A stretch of DNA of 35,219 nucleotides from a virus (taxonomy: Duplodnaviria; Heunggongvirae; Uroviricota; Caudoviricetes). The DNA is taken from positions 1 to 35,219 of the IMG/VR virus record IMGVR_UViG_2548876867_000017. One strand, given 5' to 3'. The notes below the pieces were generated by a model. It was given only the letters and a program-made list of their open reading frames with translations. It was not told the DNA's origin and ran no database searches. Positions 11,047 to 32,751 of this stretch are shown in pieces (the stretch's first letter is position 1; every line of letters begins with the position of its first letter). The translations under genes were made by a program, and so were the position numbers.

Positions 11047-11817
11047 TTATTTCTTGAAGTCTTCGTACATTCTACGAAGGTTGTATTTTGGATGGCCTAA
11101 GCTAACCATGATTTGGCTCAATTTAACTGCGCCAGGTTTGCCGTTTTCAATCCACACACGACGGATTTCATCGTAATGCTGCCAACAGCCTTGACCTTTA
11201 GCAATGCGTATAGAATGTGTATATTTCTTGGTAGAGCTTTCTGGTCGCTTACGCCCTAGATGTGCTTTTCTAATCTTTTCGCGTGTTTCTTCTGATACAG
11301 GTTTACCATAACGGGGGTTATTTTCTCCACGAGAAGCAGCGGATAATTTAGCTAATATTTCTGGGTTGGTTATTTTCTTCCCTTTCATTGCACTAGGTTT
11401 ACCATAGCGATGGTTCTTTTCACCCATTCGAGATGCCGACATTTTAGCTCTAGATTCCGGTGTATGTTTTCTTCCGTAAAAAGGATGATTTTCACCACCA
11501 TCAAAACCACCGACACCACCAGGAGCAATATTAAGACATACACCACGCCCCCATTTTTCGCGTGCTGCCTCCACTAACAGAATTTCACATTCAAACGCTT
11601 CCTCGGCAGTATCAAACAATTTTGAGCGAACAACTTCAAATTCATATATCGGGGTTTCTGATTCTTTATTTTTACGCTTCATCATTTTAATAACTTTACC
11701 CGACCCCACATATCCATCATCTAGATTTGTAGTTGTTCTTTTTCCGACGTAATGATAGATTTTACCAGAGCGATTAGATTTAATAGTGGTGTGATAAACG
11801 TAATGGAATTTTTGCAT
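11047..11817 (-). CDS. GIY-YIG homing endonuclease with NUMOD3-type repeats
   Basis: N-terminal YVYH..GKIYHYVGK GIY-YIG-like motif; repeated NHPFYGRKHTPESRAKMS and NPRYGKPVSEETREKIRKAH modules typical of Seg/I-TevI-type endonucleases. Confidence 0.75.
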   Translation of the reverse strand: MQKFHYVYHTTIKSNRSGKIYHYVGKRTTTNLDDGYVGSGKVIKMMKRKNKESETPIYEFEVVRSKLFDTAEEAFECEILLVEAAREKWGRGVCLNIAPGGVGGFDGGENHPFYGRKHTPESRAKMSASRMGEKNHRYGKPSAMKGKKITNPEILAKLSAASRGENNPRYGKPVSEETREKIRKAHLGRKRPESSTKKYTHSIRIAKGQGCWQHYDEIRRVWIENGKPGAVKLSQIMVSLGHPKYNLRRMYEDFKK

Positions 11818-16330: not shown

Positions 16331-16350
16331 AGCCACCCCGAAGGATGGCT
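16331..16350 (-). terminator. intrinsic terminator after tail tube gene
   Basis: Hairpin with UUCG loop on the minus-strand transcript followed by a run of six U, 8 nt after the 16359 stop. Confidence 0.6.
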
Positions 16351-16358: not shown

Positions 16359-16829
16359 TTAGACTTTCTGGAAAACAGCTTGTTTAACCGGAGCACCATC
16401 TACTACAAAGGTGAAGGTACGGCCTACTACAGCATCCTCACCACCAGTCATGGTAGTTTTAGACAGGAAGCCGTTATAAGCGATATGTACACCAGATTTT
16501 TTCGTAGCGTCGATGTAGTAAGCAATTTTAAGCTGTACGCGCTTACCGTCTTCGGTTGCTTTAATCAGTTTTTCGTGTACTTCGTTACCCGGCATGTAGT
16601 TGATCGAAAGTTCGATATCCGGTACAGACATACGACCAACCAGCTTACGGTTATACGGACCACCGAAGTTAGGAACATCGACAGTAGAACGTTCTACACC
16701 AGTTTCCGGGAAAGCCGCACATTCTGGAATTTCCAGATAGGTTTCAGCATCAAGGTCTTTATTGCTTACGTCTTCTTGCAGAAACAGACCAACGAGGCCA
16801 CCAGAAAAAATATCAAATTTAGTAGTCAT
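16359..16829 (-). CDS. major tail tube protein (lambda gpV N-domain-like)
   Basis: 156 aa; segment LSINYMPGNE..KRVQLKIAYY resembles the gpV tube-domain pattern; strong codon bias; directly upstream of G/T chaperones. Confidence 0.65.
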   Translation of the reverse strand: MTTKFDIFSGGLVGLFLQEDVSNKDLDAETYLEIPECAAFPETGVERSTVDVPNFGGPYNRKLVGRMSVPDIELSINYMPGNEVHEKLIKATEDGKRVQLKIAYYIDATKKSGVHIAYNGFLSKTTMTGGEDAVVGRTFTFVVDGAPVKQAVFQKV

Positions 16830-16883: not shown

Positions 16884-17186
16884 TTAGCGGTTGCTCAAAC
16901 GTCTATAACGAAGATGAGCGATCCCTCGATTTGTGCTAACTGTAATTACTGCCCCTTGCGGTGCAATACAAGAATGAATCTGTCCCCAATCATGACCCTT
17001 ATGGCTTCCAGAAACACAAAAACCATGAATAAACAATTCAGAGTCACCACCGCCACCACCGGAAGAATGAGCACAGAATGAAATAGTCCCGAAAGCGTCG
17101 GCTGTCCAACCGTTAGGAATATCAAACCATCCTTGATTTGCTTTACCCGCCCTATTCCCCAAAGCGCCATCTACCCAAAATGCCAT
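16884..17186 (-). CDS. glycine-rich small protein, paralog 3 of a tandem triplet
   Basis: 100 aa; shares WFDIPNGW motif and Gly-rich core with the two upstream ORFs; RBS AGGAG; start overlaps upstream stop. Confidence 0.55.
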   Translation of the reverse strand: MAFWVDGALGNRAGKANQGWFDIPNGWTADAFGTISFCAHSSGGGGGDSELFIHGFCVSGSHKGHDWGQIHSCIAPQGAVITVSTNRGIAHLRYRRLSNR

Positions 17187-17491
17187 TAGTGCATTCTCCT
17201 GAATTTGAAATAATGCAAACTACCTTTACCCAATGTAAAGCTAACGGTAGCACCAGCGCCAACTAAAGAACTAGCACCCCAACTCCCAGCATCACCAGCA
17301 TGATGGCCTGATTCAATCAATCCATTTACAGCCAATTCAGAATCAAGATCACCAGCACCGTTAATGGCTTCCATATGAGCAAAGACAATTCCGCATGAGT
17401 CAGTAACCCAACCGTTTGGGATATCAAAATATCCACCATTAGCCCAAATACTAATAGCATTAGACATTCTTTGATTTATCCATCCAGCCAT
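17186..17491 (-). CDS. glycine-rich small protein, paralog 2
   Basis: 101 aa; YFDIPNGW motif, Gly-rich, C-terminal YFKF; RBS GGAG. Confidence 0.55.
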   Translation of the reverse strand: MAGWINQRMSNAISIWANGGYFDIPNGWVTDSCGIVFAHMEAINGAGDLDSELAVNGLIESGHHAGDAGSWGASSLVGAGATVSFTLGKGSLHYFKFRRMH

Positions 17492-17493: not shown

Positions 17494-17790
17494 TTAAAAC
17501 TCCATGAATTTAAAATATTCAATACCACCATCACCGCCGTGTCCACAGGTGACAGTACAGCCAGCAGGAACAAAGGCATTTATAGTAGATCCCCAATTAT
17601 TCCCACCACGACGACGAGCAACGGTCAAACCATCTACGTTAATCACACCATCAGCCCATCCACCGCCAGCATTATGACGCATGACAGCGACACCAGCGCG
17701 AGCAGTACCATAGCCGTTAGGAATATCAAATACATGCCATTTTAAAGCATCGATTTTAGTATTAATTTCACTACTTACCCAATATCCCAT
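17494..17790 (-). CDS. glycine-rich small protein, paralog 1
   Basis: 98 aa; VFDIPNGY motif, Gly-rich, C-terminal YFKF; RBS AAGGA. Confidence 0.55.
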   Translation of the reverse strand: MGYWVSSEINTKIDALKWHVFDIPNGYGTARAGVAVMRHNAGGGWADGVINVDGLTVARRRGGNNWGSTINAFVPAGCTVTCGHGGDGGIEYFKFMEF

Positions 17791-17828
17791 ATAAGAATCC
17801 TTAGCGGAGATTTCTCCCCGCTTTCCAA

Positions 17829-20800
17829 TTACCCTAATTTAGCTTCAATTGCAGCAAGACGTTCACGAAGAAGTTTATTTTCTTCGCTCATTTCTTGGAC
17901 CGCTTTAATTAAAAGCGCGTTCACTGCGGAGTTTGAAATTGTTAAAATTTCTTCTGGGTTATCAAGACCACCAATTTTTGCGGTTTTAACAGCTTCCGGT
18001 AATACCTCTTGTAAATCCTGTGCGATAATACCAATCTCATGACCTATAACTTCTCGGTCATTAAGAGATTTAACTTTATCGTAGGTTTTAACTTTGAGTT
18101 TATTTACCTTATCCACCGCATTTTCTTCGTAATCTTCAACATTAATTTTCAGACGACCATCGGAACGAATATAAACATCGTTAAAGTTACCATTACCAGG
18201 AGAATAGAAAGTACCATCATGATGGAACTCGAATACAGCTTGAGGATGACCAGCCGCTGGCGATGCCTCCGCAGACCCAACACGAATAATTGCTTGCCCC
18301 CAATTTTGAGGAACACGACGCATACCAAAATCGACGGCAGTTGTATACCCTTGATTGGTGATTAAACTTCTTCCTTTAATAATTGGATAATAGCTATCTG
18401 GTCCAACATAGCCATGATCGACGAATATTGGCGCTTCTAAGCCCCATTGATCACCCCAACCTCCAGATTGGCTAGCAGTCCAACGTTCACCATGAACATA
18501 GAATCGAACGTTATTGACATGGGTCATTTCGACGCCTTTTGGACTTAGCGCGATATCCCCCGCGTTTGTAATGTTTACAGCAGCATTAGTAGCATAACTA
18601 TAGAACGCTAATCCATTATCAGCACCACCTTTACCGATATACCAGTTGTTATTATCGGCACAAGTACCCAGCAAATATATAGACGAATCGCCACTTTCGG
18701 CATTCATGATGATTGCATCAGATCCGCGATTAACTTTCAGTTTACCAAAGAAGGAGTTTTTAATGGTATTATCGCCTAATCGTTCAAATTCAGCTAAAAA
18801 TCCTTTTGAGTCACGAAGACTTAAAACGTTATTTCGACCTGTATTGCTTGCCCCCCAATGGACAAGTTCCATATAGTCCATAGATTGACGAGAACCAGCT
18901 TTAAAGAAAAGGTTGTCTTCAAGACGGGTACTACCATCAATTCCCAAATGCAAACAACGAGCAGTTTCAGTGCCACCTAAATCTAATCCACCTTCGGCGA
19001 AATCATAACTGAATGGTCTACGACTATTCCACGGTCCAAAGGAATCACCGAGATCTGTGGTAAGAATATGGAAACCAACACCATCATTTCTAAAAATTAA
19101 GCCATAATTGCCACCTTTAACAGCCAAACGAGCATTTTCAGATAATGCAACTTCGCTATTCATTACGATTTTCTGGCCTTTACCGCCAGTAATATGCAAT
19201 TCACCGTTTTCGATCAAGTTTATCGAGTTTTGACCGTTGTCGTTCCACCAAATAAAATCTTTGGTTGTTCCATCACCAAAACCAAACCAACCATTACGAA
19301 CATCTTGTCCAGTGCGATAATCCATGAAATTAAAATGGCTTGATTCGTTTGGTCCTCGACGAATATCAATACCAGAATTTCCACCAACACCACCATCCAA
19401 TGTTAATTTCTTGACATGTAACCCGGATGTTACTGTCAGCAATAATTCCTGGTTTGTATCTTCGTATCCAGTAGCAAGACGATATGCGTTATCATCAACT
19501 GTCTCATGCCAGATTGTAGCTGGTGCACAACTACGGAAGCGACGCAACATCTTTTTAGCATTTGTCGGTTGTTCGTTTAAATGCTCAATATCATATTGGC
19601 CTTGATGATTGCCAGCAAAATTTAACGTCCCACGGTTGCTAAAGTTATTGAACGATGAAATGTTAAGAGCATCAAAAATTTCATCTGCAACAGGTTTTTC
19701 ACCACCCAGATATTCAGGAGTATCCAACAGGTTTAAAGAAACACCACCGGAAGAAACTTGATATTCTGCTAAAACAAATCCTGTATGTGCACCGTAGTAA
19801 GCGTAAAGATCGTAATTATCACCATCGGTAGGAATTGCACAAAAATGTTGTTCGTGATACCAGATGCTATAATAAGCATTGAATACAACACCTTTCGGGC
19901 TATTGTTGCCGCATCGAATCACCAGTTCGATAATATTGGCTTGTCCATTCTGTCCGACGTTATAACCGTTGCCACCAACTAAGCGGATCTTAGCACTACG
20001 ACCGTGTTGCTGTGGCAGTGTTAAACTACCGAGTTTAAACCAACCGCCCTCGATCCCAAAATTAAGCGTCTTCTGGAACAGTCGGTCAATTTCTGCTTTC
20101 GAATATGCGCCAATTTCAGCCGGAGTAGGTTTATCACCTTCGTGATACATGCGGTGAGAATATGACAAGTTACCCAATTCATCGTAGCCGTATGTTTTTA
20201 CAGTCGGAACAACGTTAGAACCATATGTAAAATCAAAACCGCGAGAATGATTTAGACCGCTAGGATGTGGCACATGCAAAGCTAATGCCAAATGACCATC
20301 CATATCATTAGTACGGAATGCACCAAAATAATCAAGGTTACGCGCACTTGGATCATCAAAATAGTTTGCGGTCTTAGACAGCAAATAGCCATCAGTGTAA
20401 GTGTTTACGTGCTTTTTGATGTACTTGCCATCAGCAGATCCATCGGCTGCATCAATACGGCTTTCTAAGCGTGCCAGTTCGGAATCAGTGTAAGACTTGT
20501 TATTGTCAACTTTGCTATGAATTGCTGTATTTTTGGCCTCAACATCACGGGTTAATGCTGCGACGTTATCCGCTGCCTCCTGCTTATTGGCTGCAATCAC
20601 ACCAGCAAGATGATTGTAAGTGTCGGTTAACTGATTTCCCGCATAGGTTTTATTTGCTGCGATAGTGCGGTCAGTTTCTGCCTTAATCAAATCAACCTTG
20701 TCATTAATTGCTTTGTGATTGCTTGCGATGGTTGCATCAGTACGGGATTTAATATCATCAACTTTTTTATTGATGCGGGTGTCCAGTTCCTGTGTTGCTA

Positions 20801-21239
20801 CAGCAGCCGCATTTTTATTAGCATTGATAGTATCCGACAATTCAGCTTTAACACCAGCAAGGTCGGAAGCAGCTTTATTTTTATTGGCATCGATTGTCGC
20901 GTCGGTTTCGCGTTTAATTACATCAACTTTATTGTTAATTTCTGCGTGATTTGCTGCGATAGTAGAATCAGTAGTTTGTTTAATTTCATCTACTTTAGCG
21001 TGAATATTGCGGTCATTTACTACAATTGTGCTATCCAGTTCTTTTTTATTAGCATCAACTTTAGATTCTAGTGCCGCGTGAGTTTCAGGAGAAACAGAGA
21101 TTTGAACTACTTCATGATCTCGGTCTTTGGTAAAAATAACATGGTCTTTAAGGTTGATTGCTACCTCACCGACCTGTAATTGTTCCGGCGTTGGTTTTTT
21201 GCCAGAAACATTAGTTCGTTTAAATTGGATTGATTGCAT
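17829..21239 (-). CDS. side tail fiber protein with C-terminal intramolecular chaperone (peptidase S74-like) domain
   Basis: 1136 aa; N-terminal periodic KVDxIKxxTDxTIxANK repeats; C-terminal about 110 aa (SDGRLKINVEDYEENAVDKV...LRERLAAIEAKLG) matches the auto-cleaving chaperone domain of endosialidase / T5 L-shaped fiber type; RBS GAGGTG. Confidence 0.85.
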   Translation of the reverse strand: MQSIQFKRTNVSGKKPTPEQLQVGEVAINLKDHVIFTKDRDHEVVQISVSPETHAALESKVDANKKELDSTIVVNDRNIHAKVDEIKQTTDSTIAANHAEINNKVDVIKRETDATIDANKNKAASDLAGVKAELSDTINANKNAAAVATQELDTRINKKVDDIKSRTDATIASNHKAINDKVDLIKAETDRTIAANKTYAGNQLTDTYNHLAGVIAANKQEAADNVAALTRDVEAKNTAIHSKVDNNKSYTDSELARLESRIDAADGSADGKYIKKHVNTYTDGYLLSKTANYFDDPSARNLDYFGAFRTNDMDGHLALALHVPHPSGLNHSRGFDFTYGSNVVPTVKTYGYDELGNLSYSHRMYHEGDKPTPAEIGAYSKAEIDRLFQKTLNFGIEGGWFKLGSLTLPQQHGRSAKIRLVGGNGYNVGQNGQANIIELVIRCGNNSPKGVVFNAYYSIWYHEQHFCAIPTDGDNYDLYAYYGAHTGFVLAEYQVSSGGVSLNLLDTPEYLGGEKPVADEIFDALNISSFNNFSNRGTLNFAGNHQGQYDIEHLNEQPTNAKKMLRRFRSCAPATIWHETVDDNAYRLATGYEDTNQELLLTVTSGLHVKKLTLDGGVGGNSGIDIRRGPNESSHFNFMDYRTGQDVRNGWFGFGDGTTKDFIWWNDNGQNSINLIENGELHITGGKGQKIVMNSEVALSENARLAVKGGNYGLIFRNDGVGFHILTTDLGDSFGPWNSRRPFSYDFAEGGLDLGGTETARCLHLGIDGSTRLEDNLFFKAGSRQSMDYMELVHWGASNTGRNNVLSLRDSKGFLAEFERLGDNTIKNSFFGKLKVNRGSDAIIMNAESGDSSIYLLGTCADNNNWYIGKGGADNGLAFYSYATNAAVNITNAGDIALSPKGVEMTHVNNVRFYVHGERWTASQSGGWGDQWGLEAPIFVDHGYVGPDSYYPIIKGRSLITNQGYTTAVDFGMRRVPQNWGQAIIRVGSAEASPAAGHPQAVFEFHHDGTFYSPGNGNFNDVYIRSDGRLKINVEDYEENAVDKVNKLKVKTYDKVKSLNDREVIGHEIGIIAQDLQEVLPEAVKTAKIGGLDNPEEILTISNSAVNALLIKAVQEMSEENKLLRERLAAIEAKLG
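17832..18164 (-). other. predicted self-cleaving intramolecular chaperone domain of the tail fiber
   Basis: Begins at the conserved Ser of RSDGRLK (Ser codon at 18162-18164); expected to be removed after fiber trimerisation. Confidence 0.6.
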
Positions 21240-21267
21240 CTAATCACCTCACATAAAACAGGAATAA

Positions 21268-21285
21268 GGGAGGCGTTAACCTCCC
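21268..21285 (-). terminator. hairpin (candidate terminator) upstream of fiber gene
   Basis: GGGAGG-CGTTAA-CCTCCC hairpin between the 21313 stop and fiber start; moderately U-rich tail on minus strand. Confidence 0.4.
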
Positions 21286-21312
21286 CGCGTCATGTTTTAT
21301 TTAGAGAAGCAA

Positions 21313-22146
21313 TCAGTATTCCCCGAAATCGATCCGGTCATGGATAGAAACGGCTTCAATCTCGGCTGGTGTCGGTTTTTCTTCCGTGGAATACACTTTC
21401 ACCCATCCAGAATTACCGTCTTTCTGGACTGTGCGAACTCGTAAACGTGGTGCGCCGGAAGCGGTGCAAGTTAATTGCCATCCACCATCTTCATTAGGTT
21501 GAACGTGAATTAGTGAAGTATCAGCACTAAATGGGTTAGATGCGCTCGATCCCTGATAAGTTACGAAACGGTTTCCGGCTAATGCTTCGCTATCAATCGG
21601 ACCCGTGAATGGATTTACACCAGCACCCAAACCAAAATCACCTTGACGTAAGATCCGGCCTTCGGTAGCAATACCGCGATCTAGAATCCCGCCATCAGGT
21701 TCTAATTTAAACTCGATTGTAGTAACTTTGTTATCACCGGATTTTGTTTTATGTGACGAGACATAAGCGTCAAAAATGACGTAGTAACCTGTGTTAGCAG
21801 CACTATAGCCAGAGTTCACAACATAGAACATACGAAAGCGTAAAGGAGTTTTATCATTCACCGCTTTCATCAACATGTCTTGATGTTCGTCATCCAGAAC
21901 ACGGTTTACTACTAACGTAGTTGATTCAAGTTTACGATAGCCAGCAAGTTTACCCGTAGCGTCCTGATCATACTCTTCTAACGTCTGGATCTCTGTGGAT
22001 TCGGTTAGCGTAGGGAATGCTGCGACGTTCTCGATAGGACTAAATGCAGGATCGAAAAAGTCCGGCTGGTTATCCACCATAGTAGACACGGAGACTTCAA
22101 CATGCGACCCCGTGAAAATGTCTAAGTTATCTTGTGTAATATTCAT
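21313..22146 (-). CDS. structural protein with fiber-like KPTPAEI motif
   Basis: 277 aa; C-terminal EEKPTPAEIEAVS resembles GDKPTPAEIGAYS in the tail fiber; RBS AAGGGGT. Confidence 0.5.
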   Translation of the reverse strand: MNITQDNLDIFTGSHVEVSVSTMVDNQPDFFDPAFSPIENVAAFPTLTESTEIQTLEEYDQDATGKLAGYRKLESTTLVVNRVLDDEHQDMLMKAVNDKTPLRFRMFYVVNSGYSAANTGYYVIFDAYVSSHKTKSGDNKVTTIEFKLEPDGGILDRGIATEGRILRQGDFGLGAGVNPFTGPIDSEALAGNRFVTYQGSSASNPFSADTSLIHVQPNEDGGWQLTCTASGAPRLRVRTVQKDGNSGWVKVYSTEEKPTPAEIEAVSIHDRIDFGEY

Positions 22147-22155
22147 TATTACCCC

Positions 22156-22578
22156 TTAAAAACGCGCTACATAAGAAAATTTAAGGCTAAGTGTCCCAAC
22201 GATACCCCCATCACTAGAATCATCGTCATAATCGGTATTAGAAGCTACTGGAGTGATATCTGAAATAGAGAAGCCCAAATCTTTAAAACGTGGGTTATCC
22301 GGCTGAATCTGGATTATCTGGCAAATACCCTCATGAATTTTTGTTTCATGAATCTGAGAATATAATTGCATTTCGATAACGCATTCAGCTTGCATTGCAT
22401 TACCACCACGGACCCTATTGTAAGTCTCATTCATTCCGGTAATCCAACAAACCACGTCATCACTAAAGCCTTGCTGAGTTTGTTCTACGTTTAAAGCCAG
22501 ACCTAAATCTTGTTCGATAATATCCTGCAAGGCGCGTTTGATTTTCAGTCTAGGCATATTATTAACGGTAGCGAGCAT
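22156..22578 (-). CDS. hypothetical head-tail joining protein
   Basis: Start moved to ATG 22578 with RBS AGGGGG 7 nt upstream (ORF-track start 22659 overlaps upstream gene by 98 nt). Confidence 0.45.
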   Translation of the reverse strand: MLATVNNMPRLKIKRALQDIIEQDLGLALNVEQTQQGFSDDVVCWITGMNETYNRVRGGNAMQAECVIEMQLYSQIHETKIHEGICQIIQIQPDNPRFKDLGFSISDITPVASNTDYDDDSSDGGIVGTLSLKFSYVARF

Positions 22579-22852
22579 GTGTACCCCCTGCACGAGCAAT
22601 AAAGCAATCAGAAGTATTATCACCATTGCGCTTAACGTATTGAACTTTGAAGCGTTCACCGTCTACAATGACAACATCACCCTGATTTAAGTCTCCCTCA
22701 CGACAAAATAGAAATTCTGATTCTGTAATTACCCCTTGTTCGTCGGTAGTAGTAATTTCATGGTAAGCACGAATTGATTTACCACCTTCCACCGAAAATA
22801 CAGGAGCACTTTTAAACATTCTTGATAATTGTGATTCTGATAATTTGAACAT
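22562..22852 (-). CDS. hypothetical head completion / neck protein
   Basis: 96 aa; first gene after the capsid terminator; RBS AAGGGGG. Confidence 0.45.
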   Translation of the reverse strand: MFKLSESQLSRMFKSAPVFSVEGGKSIRAYHEITTTDEQGVITESEFLFCREGDLNQGDVVIVDGERFKVQYVKRNGDNTSDCFIARAGGTHARYR

Positions 22853-22882
22853 AGTTACCCCCTTTATGGAGTATTTACATAC

Positions 22883-22908
22883 AAAAAAGCCCCACCGTTA
22901 GGCAGGGC
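22883..22908 (-). terminator. intrinsic terminator after major capsid gene
   Basis: 8 bp stem with tetraloop followed on the minus-strand transcript by six U. Confidence 0.6.
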
Positions 22909-23043
22909 TAATTATTATTCTTTAGTTTTACGCTGTTTTTTAGCTGTGGCTTTCGCCTTAACCGTCTGGGATTCTTCTTCCGGTTCAGGAATCAGATTTT
23001 CTTCCCCCAAATCGGGGGAAGGTTCAGATGGTTCTACAGGAGT

Positions 23044-25050
23044 TCATTCAGCGGAGATGTGAAGAACTTTCAGCGCTTCCGGCTGGGTTACAACGTAATC
23101 CAGATCTACCCAGATACGCGGAACGATAGCAGACTGTGCGCGGTAGGTAGTGTCATCAATGTCAAGTTCCAGACCACCCCATTCACCGATGGTAATAGCG
23201 TCGAACGATCCCAGAACGATGTGGTCTACCGGAATAACACCAGAAGTAACTACGTCGTAACCAGCCAGTTTACCGTTTTCGATGATATAACCGGAAACGC
23301 CGTTATCTTTCAGGGTAGATTCCAGTTCAGCAGCAGTTGCACCGCTCATCGCAAACTTGATCGCCTGAGCAGGAACGCCAGCGTCCGTGAGCTTTGCAAT
23401 CTCCTTGAGGAAGTCTTTATAAGAGAAAGCAGCTTTCTTCTCTACGCGACCAGCATCTACCAGTTGTTTAATCACACCAGCCGGACCACGAGCATTTTCT
23501 TTGTCGGACAGAATCAGTTGTTCCAGTTTGATGCGAACAGCCTGGTTAATGTGATCAGTGATCAGGGTAGCGATGCCGGGTACGGTCTTGAGGCTAGCTC
23601 TGCTGATCGGATTCCCACCAGCAAACGTCTTAGGAGCCATTTTCACGTTTGCAAATTCAGCTTTACCTTCCGGCGCAGCACCGTTTTCATCAACGAAGCC
23701 GAAAGATTCAACGCTGGAAGCGGTCATTTTAGGAATAGCGGTCGGTGAAGTCAGACCAGACAGGACTTTCACACCAAGACGACCCAGAACGGATTCCGGC
23801 AACAGCATCGCTACATAGGAATCATTCAGCAGTTTTTCGTCGGTTACAGCGGTCAGAGTAGCTTTGGTGTTACCATCAGCAGCAGCACGCATAGCAGCAG
23901 TCGGAACGAATACAGAGCCACCGCGAGCAGCACGACCACGCTGCATAGTTGCAGTAGCAGCCATTGCAGAAAACTCGGCTTCGTGAGCACCCAGAGCTTC
24001 ACCATCTACCAGAGAGCGAATTACGTTGTTCAGGTCAAAAGTTTTTTCCATTTTAGAGTCCTTAATTTGTTGTTCGTTATTACGTTGAGCATTGGTAATG
24101 TTATTTAGTGCCTTAGTGCGGAATGCTTCCGGCGTCATATCTTTAATTGCCAATGCGCGTTCTAATTCTTCGTCGTTAATATTTAACTCACGAGCGATTG
24201 CTCGGATTTCTTCTTCGTCTTCTTCGGAACGTTCAGCCACTTCTTCGATTTTTTCTTCTTCAACCGGAGCAGCTTCACGTTCTTCTTTTACTTCTTCTGT
24301 TTCCCGAACAGTTGAACTATCATCATCAACACTTTCAGGATGTTCAGCGTCTTTTCCGTCTTCGAGATTTTCATCTTCTTTATTCTCTTCAACTTGGCGC
24401 TCTTGAGTTTCTTCTACTTCCGATTCTTTATTTTCTTCTACCGGAGTTTCTTCAACCTGAGCGGATTCTTGTTCTTCTTTGATTTCTTCAATTTGTTCTT
24501 TAGTCATATCGCGTTTAGCCTCCAAATTAACTGTGATAGTATTTAGAGAGCGATTTAAACCGACCGAATCGTCCGCCGGGACCGTAACAAAACTTAATTC
24601 GAAAGGAACAAACTTAGTAACAATCAATTGTCCTTTGGCATAATCGATGTGATATTCTTTAATGTCATAGCCGACAGAAATTTTTTCCATCGTACCTTCA
24701 ATGACCTTATTACGAATATCATTAGCCAAAGTGCCATGCTTAGAGAATCTAACGGTCGCACGGCCTACTTTATCCGCATCGATTCGAGCGTTACAAACGA
24801 CACCTAAATGATTATCGAAATTATGATTAAACAGCAACGGAGCGTTATTATTCAGACGAGACAGATCAACCGCTTCCGGTGTATGTATCAGAATTTCATC
24901 TAATACCACCATTTCTTGATTTTGCTCATCCCAGAATTGGCGCTGATAAGGCTGTTCACTGGAGAAAGCAATTTCAAATTCGTATTGATCGTTATGCCCT
25001 TCGTTAATAACTCCACCGTAACCGTTAAGTTCGCGGCGAAATTTAAGCAT
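23044..25050 (-). CDS. fused prohead protease - scaffold-like linker - major capsid protein (HK97 fold)
   Basis: 668 aa; N-terminus has HK97-type protease motifs (APLLFNHNFDNHLGVV, ISVGYDI, ELSFVTVPADDSV); acidic Glu-rich middle; C-terminal about 350 aa with capsid-like pattern and strong codon bias; RBS AAAGGTGA. Confidence 0.8.
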   Translation of the reverse strand: MLKFRRELNGYGGVINEGHNDQYEFEIAFSSEQPYQRQFWDEQNQEMVVLDEILIHTPEAVDLSRLNNNAPLLFNHNFDNHLGVVCNARIDADKVGRATVRFSKHGTLANDIRNKVIEGTMEKISVGYDIKEYHIDYAKGQLIVTKFVPFELSFVTVPADDSVGLNRSLNTITVNLEAKRDMTKEQIEEIKEEQESAQVEETPVEENKESEVEETQERQVEENKEDENLEDGKDAEHPESVDDDSSTVRETEEVKEEREAAPVEEEKIEEVAERSEEDEEEIRAIARELNINDEELERALAIKDMTPEAFRTKALNNITNAQRNNEQQIKDSKMEKTFDLNNVIRSLVDGEALGAHEAEFSAMAATATMQRGRAARGGSVFVPTAAMRAAADGNTKATLTAVTDEKLLNDSYVAMLLPESVLGRLGVKVLSGLTSPTAIPKMTASSVESFGFVDENGAAPEGKAEFANVKMAPKTFAGGNPISRASLKTVPGIATLITDHINQAVRIKLEQLILSDKENARGPAGVIKQLVDAGRVEKKAAFSYKDFLKEIAKLTDAGVPAQAIKFAMSGATAAELESTLKDNGVSGYIIENGKLAGYDVVTSGVIPVDHIVLGSFDAITIGEWGGLELDIDDTTYRAQSAIVPRIWVDLDYVVTQPEALKVLHISAE

Positions 25051-25095
25051 TTAATCACCTTTAATTAATTGGGGGCATTGCGCCCCCGTTGGTTA

Positions 25096-26607
25096 TTAGG
25101 GATCGGTTTGAGAAGGGTTATCCTTGCTCTCACCATTAACGATAATATTTAGTGCGCTCTTTTCGGCTTGAATCTCTGAGAATACTTTTTCAGGATCATC
25201 ACCACGTTCCAAAATAACGGCAGTACGTGATTTAAGTCCTTTATCAATTAAAGCAATCTCGGCGTTTACGTCTTTAATTGGATCGACGGATTCAAAACGC
25301 GGACGAATAATAGTAGTGTTATCGATAATATGCGGAATTGCAGTAATACGAATCGGAACAATACCACGCGCGGAATAATGGCGTAGATATGCTTCGAAAA
25401 TTGGCAATACCACTGTTTCAATTAATTTGTTTTGCAGTGCTTTAACGCGCGTTCTTTGAAGTAATTCGCCGTAGCGTGCAGCGCTGTAATTTATTTGGCT
25501 AGTATCGCCAGTTAAGCCCTGATTGAACACGCCAAGACCCATTGCTATGCTAGTGAACATACCAGCGTTAAATGAATTGAAATCATCGCCGCTTTGCGTG
25601 GATTGAATACTCTTGATCGTTGCCCCTTCCGGCAATTCCTGAATAGTACCCGGCGCGAAATCGTGAATAACTTCCGGCGCTTGATATTGTTCATCATCTT
25701 CACCAGTATCAAAATCGTCACCAGAATCTTTCGGACGCTCGATGAACGCCATGCTACTAGCTGAAATTCGTTTCTGGATCAGGACCGCTTCGCGGAATGC
25801 GTCTTGATGTGCGATATCCTTAATCACTGGCAGGAAGTCGGTCACGCCGCGCAAACTTTCGGCGCACAAGGGCTGATAGTAATGACACACTTGAGAAGCA
25901 TCTACGCGATAGTTATCACCTGTGTAGGTTTGAGTCAGTAGGTTGATTTTACGAAACCAGTATGCTACGGGCTTCATTGTTTCCACGTCATACTCCACAC
26001 CTTGATATATCGCACGTTCTTTGCTTACTTCACGGTTTAGCGACCAGTCGCACTTATCAGCAGACAGGATGGAAACATTTAACTCATTGTTTTCTTTGGT
26101 TAAAACGATGAAGCACTCACCACCCATAACGCGCTCACGTTCAGCCATCACCAGCAGTTCACGGAAGTTAAAACGACCATTGCGGGAGAAGCGTTTAGCA
26201 TTCTGCGCCCACTTCCAGAAAGCATTCTCGATCTGCTTATTCAGTGCGGTATCAAGTTTGCCATTTGATTTAACGATTGATGGCTTCGGATCTAGGCCAG
26301 TGCCGACCACCATATCGGTGATGTATTGCGTGTAGCGACTGCCTACGGAAGTGTTTAAGGCCAGAGTACGACCCTGATCATAAAGGCGCTTACCATTCGA
26401 TTTGAGAGCCTTATTGAAGGTTCCTGTAATGGTATCTTGTTGAAGCGATCCATCAATGCGATCACCAACCAGTCCTAAACTACGAGTCGCCAGAGATTTC
26501 TGGTATTTTTCTATAGATTTGTCGATAAAGATTTTTTGTTGTTGCTGGCGGTGATTAGTTTTAACTGGAGTTTCTACCGCCTTATTGCGTCGAAAAAGAT
26601 TAAACAT
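25096..26607 (-). CDS. portal protein (lambda gpB-like)
   Basis: 503 aa between terminase and capsid genes; C-terminal region recalls lambda-family portals; RBS AAGGGG. Confidence 0.8.
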   Translation of the reverse strand: MFNLFRRNKAVETPVKTNHRQQQQKIFIDKSIEKYQKSLATRSLGLVGDRIDGSLQQDTITGTFNKALKSNGKRLYDQGRTLALNTSVGSRYTQYITDMVVGTGLDPKPSIVKSNGKLDTALNKQIENAFWKWAQNAKRFSRNGRFNFRELLVMAERERVMGGECFIVLTKENNELNVSILSADKCDWSLNREVSKERAIYQGVEYDVETMKPVAYWFRKINLLTQTYTGDNYRVDASQVCHYYQPLCAESLRGVTDFLPVIKDIAHQDAFREAVLIQKRISASSMAFIERPKDSGDDFDTGEDDEQYQAPEVIHDFAPGTIQELPEGATIKSIQSTQSGDDFNSFNAGMFTSIAMGLGVFNQGLTGDTSQINYSAARYGELLQRTRVKALQNKLIETVVLPIFEAYLRHYSARGIVPIRITAIPHIIDNTTIIRPRFESVDPIKDVNAEIALIDKGLKSRTAVILERGDDPEKVFSEIQAEKSALNIIVNGESKDNPSQTDP

Positions 26608-26617
26608 GATTTACCCC

Positions 26618-27112
26618 TTATCGCGTAAGACGTAATTTGATATTTTTAATCGGGCTAATTCCCTGTTTACGTCGTTCGGCTTGAATTAATTTTGATAACT
26701 GACGTTCATAATCGACTTTTAGAGTCTGGAGAACAGCCAATGACTCATAGGCGAAAGTATTCCCTTTCACGGTCATTTGAGATAATGCGGCTTCGTCCCC
26801 AGATAAACGAGAAAAGATGACTTGTTCCAAAATGGCGATAGTTTCCCGCAGATATTCTTTTTTGGATTGTTTGGCGAATACTGGCAAAACAGTTAATTCC
26901 TGCATTGATACCAGTTCATCATCCAAAGTTATTACGATGGTATATTTACCTTCGGCAAAATCTAAGGTTTTAATCTCATGATTAGCCGGAGTATCATCAA
27001 CCTGATAAATGATACCTTTACTATTTCCTACCTGAATTGTTACACCCTCTTCATTCGCCAGCGTGATTTTTTCGCCTTTCCGAATTACTAAGGGAATTAG
27101 TTCTAAACTCAT
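26618..27112 (-). CDS. hypothetical head-associated protein
   Basis: 164 aa between large terminase and portal; RBS AAGGGGT. Confidence 0.5.
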   Translation of the reverse strand: MSLELIPLVIRKGEKITLANEEGVTIQVGNSKGIIYQVDDTPANHEIKTLDFAEGKYTIVITLDDELVSMQELTVLPVFAKQSKKEYLRETIAILEQVIFSRLSGDEAALSQMTVKGNTFAYESLAVLQTLKVDYERQLSKLIQAERRKQGISPIKNIKLRLTR

Positions 27113-27184
27113 AATTACCCCTTATTTAATTGTTATTGGATTAACAATATTTAGGAGTAAGCCGCCCCGAAGGACGGCGAGTTA

Positions 27185-29089
27185 TTAGAACGATGTTACC
27201 CAGCTACGGCCTCTATTTGGGCGTCTGACGATGTTTTGACGTTGTGGTCGTGTGATTGGCTTAGTTTCTTCTATTTGCTCGTTAGATTGCGATTTAGGAG
27301 CTTTTACGGGTTCTTCGACAACACGGTTTAAGCTGTCTTTCATTGCAATGAGTTTATCCCATGACATTTTTGAAAGGACGTAGCGAGAAGCCGCTGTAGC
27401 ATACACGGCGCAGTCGAGCGCCTCGTTCCTAACGCCTGGGTTCTTTACCCATCTCACGCCAGTAGTAGTACGCTTGACAGATTCACTTAAAAGCTGATCG
27501 AGATAATCATCAGGAACGGTGTCTGATATTTCTAAGGCAATATGAGGATTATCTTTCAGGTTCCTAGCCAACATTTCACGAAATGCAGTTTTACCCACGT
27601 TAACACCCAACATAAGCAATTCATGACCACCTGTGCGGGTAGGTTTAACCGGAATGATCGGAGCGTTACCAGCAGAACTACCTTTGATAGCGTGTAAGTT
27701 CTTCCACTTGCCGCAAATACGGTATCCAGCTTGAGTGAATCGACCGTTCGATGTATCAAGGAAGCTGGCGAGCATAGGAACACGATCACCCGATACAGTA
27801 GTAAATTTGGTTTTATGGAAGTTGATTAATCTATCCCATACAGGTGATTCATATCGTTCACAGTTATGATCGTAAAAGCTGCGGTGATCCAGAATATAAA
27901 TCTTATCCTTTGCCACGCCCATGATCGTAGTTTCTGCGCGATCTAATTGCTGGTCAGTACCCGCACACAAGAAAATCACGTCATCAGGGATATTCTCGAT
28001 AGAAACATCTGTTTTGAGTTGTTCCAGTTCATTTGCTTCTACTGCCGTGTCCTGATCGTCGTATACCTTGCCTAACACGGTGTTAAAAAAGGATTGTAAA
28101 TCAAAGGATTGCCACGCATGACTAAAATCAACCACACAAGCGCGGATCGTACTGAAAGGTGAATACAGACGACTGATCCAGAATCCTGCTACTTCACTTT
28201 CACGGGTTGCTCTCCACTCGCCTTGCGCTACTGCCCTGATTCGTTCCCCTTCTGTCCATGCGTTCTTACAGTGGGGGCAAATATAACGAGCGGTATCAGG
28301 ATCGGGTAAGTTCTTACCATCAATGTTACGCCATTCAAATTGAACGTTTTCCCACTCGATCACCTGGTGTTCCCCGCAATGAGGACACGGAACAAAAAAC
28401 ATACGCATATCACTTGATAACCATTGCTGGTTAATGATTCCCAGCTTATTGGTTGGGGTACTAGAAACAATCAATCGAGCTTCATCACCAAAGGTAGTTA
28501 AACGGTTTGCAGTTAGTGCCACCGGACAACCTTCTTCGGTGATTGTTGCTGCGTCGCATTCGTCTACAATCCCTAACTTGGCAGTACGCCCACGCAAACT
28601 TGAAGGACTGGTCAAAGAAACCATGTAAAGGAAATGGTTTGTTTTTAGCTGAATCTGGTTATTGTTGTTTACCGCATTACGATCATTCTTATCTGTTACC
28701 ACTTCCTGTAATGCCGGACATGCTTCAATAGAAGGACGGATCTTAGTATTCAAGTACATAGCCACTTCTTTAGCGGTACTTTGCCCGATAATGATATTGC
28801 ACGGATCGTTTGCCATCTGGTTAAACATGATCCCTGACATGATGGTCGTCTTTCCGATCTGCGCACTCGTACAAAAAACGTACTTCTTTTTCTTCTCAAG
28901 GAAAGGAGCATCAATCATGCCTTTCTGAAATGACAGTAATTTAACTTTATCCCCAGCACGAGGACCATCGACTAGCGTTAGATTCGCTTCGCACCATTCA
29001 GAAGGAAGGAGCTTAGGCGGTGGCGTAATATATTTGGCTGCATTTTTAAGAATCTTTTTTAATTTTGCCTTATTAGAAATCAGTTTCAT
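27185..29089 (-). CDS. terminase large subunit (lambda gpA-like)
   Basis: 634 aa; motifs [28 protein letters not shown] and [14 protein letters not shown] correspond to lambda gpA segments as I recall them; Walker A-like AQIGKT; RBS GAGGG. Confidence 0.85.
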
Positions 29090-29176
29090 GTAATTACCCT
29101 CATTACGAAATATGAAGGTATTTATTAAGTTGTTGATTTTTTGATAAATACGGGTATTAAGATTTAAGGGGGTTGT

Positions 29177-29782
29177 ATGCTAATTGATCAGCAACAAAGA
29201 GATGAATTAGAATTAGCCTTTTCTTGTTGTACCGATCATGAATATCGTTTGCCAGTTAAGCACCATCACAAGAAGACTGATTACACAACATCTGGCTTTA
29301 GTCGTGAGGAAGCTAAACAGATTTTAATCGAGTTGTATCGCGATCATGGGTATACCGATATTCATAACTTCTTTAAGAAGCATCGCACATCACAGACAGA
29401 GTTTCAGCGAGTCCGTGAGTGGTTTGATTTTGACATTAAGCGATTCTATCGAGTAGATGACGGTCCTATCTATCGGTTGCAGTGGAAGCCGATCCGAGAA
29501 GTGCTTAAACAGAAGAGATTGAATCATGCCATTACACGCTATCGTAATGTGGCTTTCAAGAAAGGCTATGGTGATACAAGGGAATTGTTTGTAGAACTCG
29601 CTAACGTGCGATATAGCCATTATTACAGGAATCCTAAAGAGTTCTTCGAAGTGCTGCGCAAGGTTGATATAAGTCGGGGTACATACTATTCACGGTTGAA
29701 GAAGTACGGGATTAAGGCAGAGTTTTTTATGTCAGTTGACGATGGAGAACTTTTTCCGATAAAATGTAAGTCCTCTAAATAA
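29177..29782 (+). CDS. protein with C-terminal resolvase/transposase-type HTH motif (putative transcription regulator)
   Basis: 201 aa; C-terminal [16 protein letters not shown] fits the HTH_7/HTH_23 pattern; RBS AAGGGGG; divergent from the terminase operon. Confidence 0.5.
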
Positions 29783-29816
29783 AGGTGAACATTCACTTTA
29801 ATTTGGAGAAATGACT

Positions 29817-30044
29817 ATGACTACTAAAGCTACTCGCGGTCGTCCTGCCCGTTTTAACGCTGAACAGATGGCTGATATTGCCTACGCTTATTATACAGCG
29901 GATCGTGGTAAGGAAGCGAAAGAACAGATTCTTAGTGAACATGGGATCTCAATCGCCCAATTCTATAAGAATATGAAGAAGTTAGACATTAAATTCTATG
30001 TTCAGATCGGTGATGGTCAGATCGTAGAAGCAACAGGTTTTTGA
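29817..30044 (+). CDS. small HTH protein (paralog family with 33212..33391)
   Basis: Start taken at second ATG (better SD spacing); RGRPARF..ADIAYAYY..ISIAQFYKNMKKLDIKFYVQI parallels the 33212 product. Confidence 0.5.
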   Translation: MTTKATRGRPARFNAEQMADIAYAYYTADRGKEAKEQILSEHGISIAQFYKNMKKLDIKFYVQIGDGQIVEATGF

Positions 30045-30052
30045 TTCTCTTT

Positions 30053-30076
30053 GCCACTCTTCGGAGTGGCTTTTTT
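30053..30076 (+). terminator. rho-independent terminator
   Basis: GCCACTC-TTCG-GAGTGGC hairpin followed by TTTTTT after stop of 29817..30044. Confidence 0.7.
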
Positions 30077-30091
30077 GTATCTGTAGGTATG

Positions 30092-30115
30092 AAAAAGCCC
30101 CACACTAGGCGAGGC
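30092..30115 (-). terminator. intrinsic terminator for the leftward Rha-like operon
   Basis: Hairpin GCCTCGCC..GTGGGGC on minus strand followed by UUUUU, just after the 30125 stop. Confidence 0.5.
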
Positions 30116-30124
30116 TAAAAATTA

Positions 30125-30955
30125 TTACAGTCCGAAGACTTCCAGTGATCCAACATTCTGACGGAGACGTTCAGCCGCTTTATTTTGAATCAGAATAGTG
30201 TTGTTCGGCTTAGGAAGATTCAGAGTTGCTTTTTGTTCTTCTTCCAAAACACCCAATTCAACCAGCACCGGAAGCACATCAACAGTAAACTCAAGTTGGT
30301 AGTGAGCATTCATGCGGCAGAAAGAGAGAGAAGAATCATTAGCAACATACCCACACGGCTTGTTATTTTCATCATAGACGCGCTCGATGTATCCAGCAGT
30401 ACGTAAGGCCGTCAGTGCTTCTTTAACCTTCGTAGCGCCCTTTTTAGCGCCTAACAGACGGGTCATTGAATGGCTATCTACAGACTTACGAACATGAAGT
30501 TCAATCAGTTGTTTGTTTTCGCGAGTTTTCTTTAACGCCAGTTCGATCCAGTCTGTTTCTTCAAAGTGTTCATATGGATTAACCGGAACATTAGCTTTCC
30601 CTTCTTTCATCAAACGCCATTCTTTAGCAATTTTGAAGCGAAGCGGTGCATCGTATCCCATAACCAGAGTATTACAGAGATCTTCGTCCAGTTCATACAT
30701 CGGGCGAGATTGATTATTCTTATCAAAATATGAAGATTCTACAAAATACCCCAGCGCAAAATTGCGCCCGGCTAATTCGCTTCCTTTTTCAAGAGAATCA
30801 ATCATGCGACGAAAATCACGCATAACATCCTTATGATTCTTTCCGGTCAATTCAGCAATCTGACGGGTAGACATGGTCAGCGGTTTGGTGTTATCAACAA
30901 CCAGAGACACGGAAGCAGTTTTAACAGCAGTATTCATAGTAGTAACAGTATTCAT
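30125..30955 (-). CDS. Rha-family / antirepressor-like regulatory protein
   Basis: N-terminal TMSTRQIAELTGKNHKDVMRDFRRMID fits the Rha/ORF6N DNA-binding pattern; 276 aa; RBS AAGGGG. Confidence 0.55.
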   Translation of the reverse strand: MNTVTTMNTAVKTASVSLVVDNTKPLTMSTRQIAELTGKNHKDVMRDFRRMIDSLEKGSELAGRNFALGYFVESSYFDKNNQSRPMYELDEDLCNTLVMGYDAPLRFKIAKEWRLMKEGKANVPVNPYEHFEETDWIELALKKTRENKQLIELHVRKSVDSHSMTRLLGAKKGATKVKEALTALRTAGYIERVYDENNKPCGYVANDSSLSFCRMNAHYQLEFTVDVLPVLVELGVLEEEQKATLNLPKPNNTILIQNKAAERLRQNVGSLEVFGL

Positions 30956-31044
30956 AGTAAAAATTCCCCTTAAACGGTTTAGTGATTTGGTCCTCCTAGT
31001 TCCGGCAGCATCACCGGAACATTTTTATTTATGATAGAAATTTA

Positions 31045-31377
31045 TTACCAATCGATTTCTACTTGGTCTTCTTCATAATAAGGAATCGCATATTCATAAC
31101 GCCAATTTTCGATGATTTCACGTTCTTCATTAGTAAGAAGGTGATTGTTAACTGGAGTCGCATTGTGATTACCAGCTTCGAATTGCTCGCGAACTTCCAG
31201 CATTGCATGAATACCAGTTAAGGTCATCAGATCAAACGGAACATGCATACTACGGGAGATAGTTTCACGGGATACGCCCCAATCATTTTCTACATGGCTA
31301 GGGGTTACAGAAACGGTTTTGCCGGAGATTTTAACAGTCCAGTCATACAGGGATTTAGTGATGGTAAATTCTTTCAT
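31045..31377 (-). CDS. hypothetical protein
   Basis: 110 aa; RBS AAGAGGA; first gene after the leftward promoter at about 31434-31462. Confidence 0.55.
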   Translation of the reverse strand: MKEFTITKSLYDWTVKISGKTVSVTPSHVENDWGVSRETISRSMHVPFDLMTLTGIHAMLEVREQFEAGNHNATPVNNHLLTNEEREIIENWRYEYAIPYYEEDQVEIDW

Positions 31378-31433
31378 GTTACATCCTCTTTACAAATCTA
31401 GGTCAAATATAATAAAAGTTGTCAAGTGCGATA

Positions 31434-31462
31434 ATCATAAAAAAGTCATAAATTTTTGTCAA
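31434..31462 (-). promoter_or_regulatory. sigma70-like promoter driving leftward genes
   Basis: On minus strand TTGACA (31462..31457), 17 bp spacer, TATGAT (31439..31434); the -35 is half of a TGTCAA-6nt-TTGACA inverted repeat. Confidence 0.5.
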
Positions 31463-31497
31463 TATACCTTGACAAGACGCCAAAGGGTTGACCTAAC

Positions 31498-32648: not shown

Positions 32649-32751
32649 CATCAAAAATTTTGATAGAAAATTCTTGTATATTATTTAACCGGAAAATCAC
32701 CAAAAATCGCTGTAAATGTATGATTTAAAAAGAATTATCAAAAGGTCGCCG

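Follow-up and report, generated by a model that had tools for sequence, protein, structure and literature searches.

A predicted tail tube paralogue with a gp36-type connector beside a gp37-type side fibre in a temperate siphophage of Escherichia coli

The window analysed here is the whole of the IMG/VR virus record stretch IMGVR_UViG_2548876867_000017, positions 1 to 35,219 (35,219 nucleotides). It represents a temperate siphophage of Escherichia coli of about 35 kb, and close relatives are found in about 55 of 5426 complete E. coli genomes. We studied two neighbouring genes of its late region, one for a 277-residue protein and one for a 1136-residue tail fibre. The late genes are on the minus strand in lambda order. 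They start with the large terminase, a 164-residue head-tail joining protein, the portal, a protease-capsid fusion and a 96-residue FII-like protein, continue with a 140-residue protein, the 277-residue protein, the fibre, three open reading frames (ORFs) of about 100 residues and a 156-residue tail tube protein, and end with G/T-like chaperones, an 809-residue tape measure, the distal tail protein, a hub-like protein, a DUF6950 protein and a J-like tip. An earlier sequence-only reading of the window had pointed to the place of the fibre gene, with the neck genes on one side and the tube gene on the other, and all relatives examined keep this order. The two genes and their main parts are the following.

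21313..22146, minus strand: ORF of the 277-residue chimeric protein, a tail tube paralogue with a gp36-type fibre connector, proposed subunit of a fibre-anchoring ring
21673..22146, minus strand: its N-terminal domain, residues 1-158, with a lambda gpV-like tail tube fold (PHROG 158, BLASTP, AlphaFold2, Foldseek)
21559..21660, minus strand: invariant glycine-rich stretch that separates tube domain and fibre module, residues 163-196, GRILRQGDFGLGAGVNPFTGPIDSEALAGNRFVT (family alignment)
21316..21579, minus strand: fibre-shaft module and C-terminal joint, residues 190-277 (hhalign, BLASTP)
21358-21378, minus strand: KPTPAEI motif, residue 257
21316-21345, minus strand: terminal tail SIHDRIDFGEY, which matches the gp36 C-terminus
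21267..21286, minus strand: stem-loop in the 73-nucleotide gap between the two genes (consensus scan only)
17829..21239, minus strand: 1136-residue side tail fibre, gp37-type (ORF; PHROG 1699, Pfam S74 and Gp34_trimer)
21099..21239, minus strand: fibre residues 1-47, gp37-type N-terminal joint element and proposed partner of the DFG tail (T4 gp37 match)

A tube domain in the 277-residue protein

The N-terminal part of the 277-residue protein resembles tail tube proteins at several levels. Residues 11-154 match PHROG 158 'major tail protein' (E 2.4e-10), the family that the 156-residue tube protein of the window matches with an E-value of 1.6e-19, and the two proteins align directly with BLASTP (E 3e-4). 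The AlphaFold2 (AF2) model, made with 22 homologues, has predicted local distance difference test (pLDDT) values of 80-90 over residues 15-161 and shows the beta-sandwich with a flanking helix and a long loop that is typical of tail tube proteins. According to Foldseek, the best PDB matches of this domain are lambda gpV (8k36_A, E 2.3e-7), the YDC107 tail core, the 80alpha tube and monocin, and the E-values for tube proteins range from 2e-7 to 2e-5. Structure prediction had been suggested as a check in the sequence-only reading, which had not foreseen a tube paralogue in the N-terminal 158 residues; the C-terminal half was modelled with low confidence.

The gene slot directly upstream of the G/T chaperones is occupied by the 156-residue protein, while the 277-residue gene is separated from it by the fibre and the three small ORFs. 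The 277-residue protein is therefore, judged by sequence and model, a specialised tail tube paralogue, not the major tube protein. This also accounts for a fibre gene lying next to a tube gene. The order can be read as FII-like, U-like, tube paralogue plus fibre module, V-like, G, T and H, and from this order it looks as if the tube gene was duplicated and the upstream copy was fused to a fibre.

Homologues of the 277-residue protein are found in Enterobacterales prophages, and the family alignment has 47 invariant columns at 39-96% identity. The most conserved stretch is the glycine-rich segment GDFGxGAG....G..D...L.GNRF that follows the tube domain, where AF2 confidence is low. Its invariant residues are G163, G169, G172, G174, G176, G182, D185, L189, G191, N192 and R193. 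The segment is invariant from E. coli to relatives of 465-482 residues and still recognisable in distant fused (Pantoea-type) proteins. It could be a trimerisation neck or a contact to the tube. Sequence searches of the PDB gave nothing meaningful for the profile of the 277-residue family, the 156-residue tube protein, the 140-residue family or Krischvirus gp36.

The gp36/gp37-type joint and its fused relatives

The sequence-only reading had described a KPTP(A)E(I/L) motif that occurs twice in the fibre and again at the C-terminus of the 277-residue protein. All three sites were found, at fibre residue 15 (KPTPEQL), fibre residue 370 (KPTPAEI) and residue 257 of the 277-residue protein (KPTPAEI); the six-frame translation of the window has one other KPTP, in a non-coding frame. 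By a rough estimate, two proteins of such lengths would share an exact 7-mer with a probability of about 6e-4. The similarity extends beyond the motif, as residues 193-267 of the 277-residue protein align with fibre residues 300-380 (BLASTP, 81 residues, 30% identity, E 0.001), and the C-terminal half of the family matches the profile of the fibre module (hhalign, probability 88.9%, E 2.4e-6, 50 columns). On these grounds a chance match was rejected. The reading was to fall if the 277-residue protein had clear homology to another family and the motif was a chance match. The first was found, as the protein is homologous to tube proteins, and the second was not, so that the 277-residue protein is best described as a chimera.

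The conserved form of the motif in the family alignment is (E/D)KPT(P/A)x(E/D)(I/V)xAV, and it is followed at the extreme C-terminus by a strongly conserved D-x-I-D-F-G-E-Y, with D273 and G275 invariant. Motifs of the KPTPAEI type are also present in T4 gp34 (VFDGGNPPQPSDIGAL), in Krischvirus gp36, which has four of them, and in long proteins of the 277-residue family, where they recur. The motif therefore marks the end of a recurrent shaft module; this module recurs one to four times within 22 unrelated long fibres. The fibre's own KPTPAEI, at residue 370, falls inside its gp37-like part. Judging from the sequences, the copy relevant to the 277-residue protein is the one that directly precedes the DFG tail, and the N-terminal KPTPEQL of the fibre is a different element, part of a gp37-type N-terminus.

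The last ~30 residues of the 277-residue protein (..KPTPAEIEAVSIHDRIDFGEY-COOH) match the C-terminal end of T-even gp36. In the Krischvirus phages KFS-EC and G37-3, gp36 ends with ..LYHEGHKPTPAEVGAVPLNAVIDFGTF-COOH and gp37 starts with MADLNRIQFKRTS..GRKP....GELAINLADQ... The last 28 residues of the 277-residue protein align end to end with the end of Krischvirus gp36 (BLASTP, 46% identity, E 3e-5), and hhalign finds the same match between the C-termini (93.1%, E 3.2e-7). The end of T4 gp36, ..VIKDSVQDFGYY-COOH (..QDFGYY), resembles the tail by eye. On the other side of the gap, fibre residues 1-47 align with residues 4-50 of T4 gp37 (45% identity, E 4e-12). With its PHROG 1699 match and its nucleotide identity to T-even gp37, the fibre has both an N-terminal segment of the gp36-joining type and a gp37-like shaft. 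The 277-residue protein ends with ..KPTxxE/D..AV....DFGx(Y/F)-COOH and is followed by a gene with a gp37-type N-terminus. In T4 the distal rod is (gp36)3-(gp37)3 (PMC5537660). The sequences thus support the view that the two genes reproduce a gp36/gp37-type joint on a tube-ring domain. The earlier proposal that the 277-residue protein is fibre-related, possibly an anchor, and not a generic neck protein holds, given its gp36-type C-terminus, its gp37-type partner and the fusion of both into one polypeptide in relatives.

We tested the pairing of the two ends in all 762 adjacent ORF pairs of the fetched loci, using [ILVM]D[FLA]Gx[FYLIE] as the C-terminal motif. Tail and gp37-type N-terminus occurred together in 51 pairs, the tail alone in one and the N-terminus alone in none, and 710 pairs had neither. 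The single tail-only pair is from Escherichia phage DCP80, where the partner is of the same type by eye. The 51 pairs include 22 distinct pairs of about six sequence types, and the DFG tail and the gp37-type N-terminus change together across these types. A locus from Proteus mirabilis (L005, 10001-13516) has two such joints in series, with the fibre in three pieces: a 275-residue stub that ends ..EEIDFGEF, a 198-residue connector with a gp37-type N-terminus that is mostly hendecad coil and ends ..LIMDFGTF, and a 675-residue distal fibre that again opens with a gp37-type N-terminus.

The relatives comprised 56 IMG/VR loci and several assemblies, with members in exactly the slot of the 277-residue gene. 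Synteny is conserved in all loci, and in every locus the canonical tube protein adjoins G/T; in some relatives it has a C-terminal extension of its own of ~100 residues (251-267 residues in total). In one locus (L045) the slot is taken by a single 1518-residue ORF that runs from a tube domain through a KPTPAAINAV module (VYTSEEKPTPAAINAV) and a long fibre to an S74 chaperone; the protein lacks the DFG tail, and the locus has no fibre gene apart from this ORF. Similar proteins, 709-1019 residues long and directly followed by a canonical tube protein of 149-151 residues, are found in L055, L056/L061, L058 and L062.

A census of 1.84 billion cluster representatives gave 278 family members (E <= 0.001). 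Among the best 150 of these 278, 96 are longer than 600 residues and have an N-terminal tube domain, and 40 of the 96 have an S74-like motif near the end. A further 16 have 321-600 residues (11 of them ending in a DFG-type tail), 12 are plain tube proteins and 22 are ordinary fibres with one to four copies of the C-terminal module. The distal domains of the long forms are varied (S74, gp37 trimerisation, T4 gp36-like, Phage_tail_C_2, Collar); these forms are found in Serratia, Rouxiella, Kluyvera, Leclercia and Pantoea and are annotated merely as tail fibre proteins. With 96 of the best 150 of 278 fused, the covalent tube-fibre protein is the common form, and the 277-residue stub with its fibre is a split version of it.

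Among 50,697 phage records there is no near match to the structural part of the window that lies upstream of the fibre gene (21200-35219), the distal part of the fibre excepted. Only one of these records contains a family member, which is unannotated there. This is DCP80 (L002, PQ671644.1, bases 1-21560), a 141-kb record filed as Gaprivervirus (Straboviridae) that starts with a siphophage structural module syntenic with the prophage, including a 699-residue tube-fibre stub protein; the assembly of this record may be chimeric. A scan of the GTDB representative genomes with the family profile found no relative, and the prophage is absent from these species representatives.

The fibre and the neighbouring genes

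The fibre matches PHROG 1699 'long tail fiber distal subunit' with an E-value of 5e-128. In addition to the joint element at its N-terminus it has the following parts.

20439..21077, minus strand: residues 55-267, 19 hendecads, predicted alpha-helical coiled coil (self-comparison, hydrophobicity periodicity)
Within the gp37 cassette, minus strand: KPTPAEI module, residues 268-381, with the motif at 20112-20132
17874..20376, minus strand: residues ~288-1121, cassette common to T-even gp37 (nucleotide and amino acid identity)
19005-19310, minus strand: gp34-trimerisation-like domain (Pfam Gp34_trimer)
Residues ~800-1000, minus strand: variable fibre tip (allele comparison)
17832..18167, minus strand: S74 intramolecular chaperone, residues 1025-1136, predicted cut at S1026 (PF13884, SDGRLK motif)

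The Gp34_trimer-like domain covers residues 644-745, and there are strong PHROG matches to T-even distal fibre families. The S74-type chaperone proposed in the sequence-only reading is present, as Peptidase_S74 (PF13884) matches residues 1026-1085 with an E-value of 4.6e-14 and 52.9 bits, compared with a gathering cut-off of 22. The Ser/Lys dyad is intact in the motif S1026-D-G-R-L-K1031, and the region is similar to the chaperone region of S16 gp37 (6f45). The chaperone is predicted to be removed at S1026 after folding.

The distal part of the fibre is closely related to virulent phages. From residue ~288 to the end, the gene has 80-94% nucleotide identity to gp37 of Krischvirus and Tequatrovirus phages, and residues 600-1136 (window 17829-19440) are 94-100% identical at the amino acid level to KFS-EC gp37 (L064:3306-6068). 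In other E. coli prophages the first ~90 residues alone are retained where the rest is swapped, and the tip, residues ~800-1000, differs between close prophage alleles. The near-identity to Krischvirus gp37 indicates, on sequence grounds, a very recent exchange of a receptor-binding cassette between a virulent Krischvirus (T-even) phage and the temperate E. coli siphophage.

The sequence-only reading had noticed about five tandem N-terminal repeats of 25-30 residues. The repeats are real, and the unit is different, since residues 55-267 can be written as 19 hendecads of 11 residues without a register break, with a 22-residue super-repeat and one 77-residue duplication. Self-comparison of the protein gives peaks at offsets 11, 22, 33, 44, 55 and 77. 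Hydrophobicity peaks at 11/5, 11/3 and 11/2, and the 11/5 peak, the strongest, is above all 500 shuffles. The core positions 3, 7 and 10 are hydrophobic or Asn, and there is no Pro in the coil. The region is predicted to be a hendecad alpha-helical coiled coil, which is probably trimeric by analogy with the trimeric nature of such fibres. A weak Apolipoprotein match in Pfam on the coil (E 2.5e-4) is far below the gathering score. At the DNA level the copies have a spacing of 66 nucleotides and 65-80% identity, with one 231-nucleotide duplication at 71%; Tandem Repeats Finder reported no repeats in 17500-22500 because they are too diverged at this level.

These repeats had also been proposed as a substrate for length variation by recombination. 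One clear case was found, an exact in-frame deletion of 165 nucleotides (55 residues, five hendecads) in L014, with borders within two INxKVD repeats and a junction between ..AEINN/KVD.. and ..TRINK/KVD.. (the slash marks the break). By its sequence, this deletion is a signature of recombination between repeat units. Such changes are rare, as the coil has the same length in 10 of 11 close IMG/VR alleles and in all 26 E. coli alleles of nearly full length; in more distant alleles the coil length is different.

Two other candidates for the fibre N-terminus were discarded. Matches to designed beta-trefoils in a PDB search were treated as chance, and an Mtd_N-type domain, suggested by one weak match in a relative (E 0.025), was dropped after the match to T4 gp37 was found.

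The genes around the pair include the following.

22156..22578, minus strand: 140-residue gpU-like tail terminator, immediately upstream of the 277-residue gene (AF2 and Foldseek)
17494-17790, 17186-17491 and 16884-17186, minus strand: three tandem paralogues of ~100 residues 3' of the fibre (~30% mutual identity)
16359..16829, minus strand: canonical 156-residue tail tube protein, next to the G/T chaperone genes (PHROG 158, E 1.6e-19; Pfam Phage_TTP_12)

The AF2 model of the 140-residue protein, made with database homologues, has a pLDDT of 78.9. Its Foldseek matches are lambda gpU (3fzb, E 3.8e-6), the lambda tail cap (8iyd_G) and T5 p142, and also NF5, SaPI1 neck and monocin terminators, with E-values of about 1e-6 to 1e-5. 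As the upstream neighbour is a gpU-like terminator, the 277-residue protein is not a neck protein, and the idea that it is itself the tail terminator was rejected, since its N-domain matches tube proteins.

The three small ORFs are Gly-rich and have a common FDIPNGW motif; searches of Pfam, PHROGs and NCBIfam gave no match. Krischvirus G37-3 has the same trio after gp37, at the position that gp38 takes in T4, and KFS-EC has a single copy after its gp37. Among relatives, the ORFs go together with the adjoining S74 3' end of the fibre. The possibility that they follow the variable tip of the fibre was rejected, as they track only this adjacent 3' end, which is linkage and not function. Many relatives (L019-L042) with other fibre alleles do not have these ORFs. 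In L019-L042 there is an ORF of 168 residues (178 in L037) between the tube and G-like genes, with no match to proteins of the window.

In the consensus scan there is a terminator-like hairpin after the 156-residue tube gene. This stem-loop (16331-16350) and one after the capsid gene (22888-22909), both on the minus strand, have T-runs; the stem-loop between the 277-residue gene and the fibre (21267-21286) is weaker than these two. From their sequence and position the stem-loops may tune the ratio of the gene products. Expression levels could not be told apart by the ribosome-binding sites.

In strain PK8568 (L001) the prophage is inserted in hicB, which is split into two pseudogene halves, next to a serine recombinase gene; the prophage carries a 564-residue serine recombinase (window 1650-3344) at one end. 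A 256-residue NUMOD3 homing endonuclease (11047-11817, minus strand, PHROG 314, E 5e-32) lies between the hub-like and DUF6950 genes; relatives whose locus reaches this region have no ORF between these two genes.

Proposed mounting of the fibre and comparison with known systems

We consider it probable, on an interpretation that rests throughout on sequence evidence, that the tube paralogue with its gp36-type connector carries the adjacent fibre, as a dedicated tube ring bearing side fibres. The N-domain of the 277-residue protein would form a ring within the tail tube and the stubs would trimerise, giving two trimers per hexameric ring. Each stub would bind one fibre trimer non-covalently through the DFG tail and the gp37-type N-terminus, as in (gp36)3-(gp37)3 of T4; that these two ends bind each other is something we infer from their sequences and by analogy. 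The fibre would consist of the hendecad coil and then the T-even gp37 cassette, whose tip would bind the host, with the S74 chaperone removed after folding. The split at the joint would let distal cassettes be swapped with T-even phages while the ring domain is untouched.

The ring would be placed near the tail tip, by analogy with T5 p140 and the lambda Stf collar. By rough estimates the fibre is ~85 nm long (a 213-residue coil at 0.15 nm per residue and ~760 residues of gp37-like shaft) and the tail ~120 nm (from the 809-residue tape measure), so a fibre anchored at the neck would fall short of the surface when the J-like tip reaches it.

Several points weigh against this picture. The AF2 model is poor over the C-terminal half of the 277-residue protein (residues 164-277, pLDDT 30-65), and as it is unreliable beyond residue 162 no conclusion on the fold of this half was drawn from it. 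In BLASTP and hhalign, the likeness to gp36 does not go beyond the last ~30 residues and the recurring motif. The Pfam model Phage_T4_gp36 (PF03903) does not match the 277-residue protein, and hhalign does not align the tail with T4's own gp36, which is why that likeness is given by eye. The protein is thus not a gp36 homologue overall, as its N-terminus is a tube domain in place of the part of gp36 that meets gp35. Close kinship among many of the 51 pairs means that part of the association is due to common descent, which inflates the counts. Ring formation, stoichiometry and the position on the tail are all conclusions that we infer. Finally, the 277-residue gene is grouped with neck genes, which could argue for a proximal position.

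That proximal arrangement, with the 277-residue ring at the top of the tube under the terminator and the fibres as whisker-like neck fibres, would use the same joint at another location. The gene does directly follow the stopper-like and terminator genes and precede the tube gene, and T4 has neck-anchored fibritin. We nevertheless find it unlikely, as the fibre bears a T-even receptor-binding distal cassette and, at ~85 nm, is shorter than the ~120-nm tail, and as known siphophage side fibres are anchored at the junction of tube and tip.

The 277-residue protein could instead be a major or co-major tube protein with a small C-terminal decoration, comparable to the immunoglobulin (Ig) domain of lambda gpV or to SPP1 gp17.1*, and the fibre would then be attached elsewhere. 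It has a gpV-like fold with an appended C-terminal domain, a full-length gpV chain (8iyk_D) aligned over 284 columns, and decorated tube proteins are common (PMC10038345). This is quite unlikely in our judgement. A canonical tube protein is present beside G/T in each genome as well, in some cases with its own C-terminal extension (251-267 residues), and most family members carry a fibre of 500-1300 residues with an S74 or other tip domain, which makes ~30 such rings implausible. There is also the strict co-occurrence of the C-terminal tail with the gp37-type N-terminus.

It is very doubtful that the 277-residue protein is an independent short stub fibre while the long fibre docks elsewhere, for instance on the distal tail protein or the J-like tip. 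The stub includes an entire shaft module, of a type that other fibres contain repeatedly, but no recognisable receptor-binding tip; its end is that of the gp36 connector, which is followed by gp37 in T-even phages, and the fused relatives run from the module straight into a full fibre. It is hardly credible that the motif is coincidental and the two proteins unrelated, for although the motif is short and similar P-T-x-x-D/E-I-G-A strings occur in many fibres, the extended similarity, the fusions, the strict pairing and the conserved synteny contradict it.

If the tube paralogue does carry the fibre, fused members would have two trimeric fibres per hexameric ring, and the joint would let whole distal cassettes move between virulent T-even phages and temperate prophages. 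More broadly, a lineage of lambda-like siphophages of Enterobacterales may mount its side fibres on a tube paralogue, mostly in fused form, with a split branch in E. coli, Salmonella and Proteus and a joint that is portable between myo- and siphoviruses; for this wider claim we see the balance as even. The anchoring of side fibres in siphophages other than T5 is known for very few cases, the known solutions being the T5 collar and the Ur-lambda Stf collar. A tube paralogue as fibre base would be a third solution, and predicts one special ring and fibres in multiples of two. The pairing also offers a sequence rule by which an orphan fibre's partner can be found, a C-terminus with DFGx(F/Y) followed by an N-terminus with IQFKR..GE.AIN. 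The gp36/gp37-type joint is here seen outside T-even phages and would be a natural break point for host-range engineering. Each component is already known, from the tube fold, the gp36 and gp37 ends and the S74 chaperone to hendecad coils and the exchange of fibre cassettes by unrelated phages. We found no description of tube-domain-fibre fusions or of such mounting of side fibres in the literature searched, which included the fibre atlas paper and is not proof of novelty.

The closest analogue is T5, where the tube paralogue p140 forms a ring that lies between the last tube ring and the distal tail protein and bears the fibre collar (PMC10038345). Both systems have a duplicated tube-domain protein in addition to the major tube protein, with the ring, in our proposal, at the level of fibre anchoring. 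The link between p140 and the L-shaped fibre pb1 is, in T5, a separate dodecameric Ig-like collar, p132, whereas here the tube paralogue would itself carry the fibre, covalently in the fused relatives or through the gp36/gp37-type joint. No gene lies between the 277-residue gene and the fibre, no protein of the module matches an Ig-like family in Pfam or PHROG, no collar gene is seen in the module, and there is no sequence similarity to T5 proteins. According to the T5 authors, p140 and p132 do not occur beyond T5-like phages, and lambdoid phages must anchor their fibres in another way (PMC10038345).

Ur-lambda resembles the phage studied here as a lambda-like siphophage with a J-type central fibre and long T-even-related side fibres anchored on the tube. 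In Ur-lambda twelve copies of the N-terminal collar domain of Stf itself wrap the gpV/gpM junction (PMC12617516). No tube paralogue is involved there; the collar domain of ~94 residues is on the fibre, which here has a gp37-like N-terminus, and stf follows J, whereas the fibre gene here lies between the U-like and V-like genes. Decorated tube proteins, such as lambda gpV and T5 pb6 with their Ig domains, also combine a tube domain with an outer C-terminal domain. They are major tube proteins with small globular Ig-like domains, while here a second gene bears a module of the trimeric fibre type or a whole fibre.

With the T-even phages, the joint has in common the upstream protein end ..KPTPAE(I/V)xAV....IDFG(E/T)(Y/F)-COOH and the fibre N-terminus ..IQFKR(T/S)..G.(K/R)P....GE(L/V)AINL.D..(I/L)(F/L)TKD.., and the distal two thirds of the fibre are a T-even gp37 cassette. 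The difference is in what the connector is attached to, as gp36 is linked through gp35 and gp34 to a myovirus baseplate, whereas here the connector is on the tube domain of a siphovirus.

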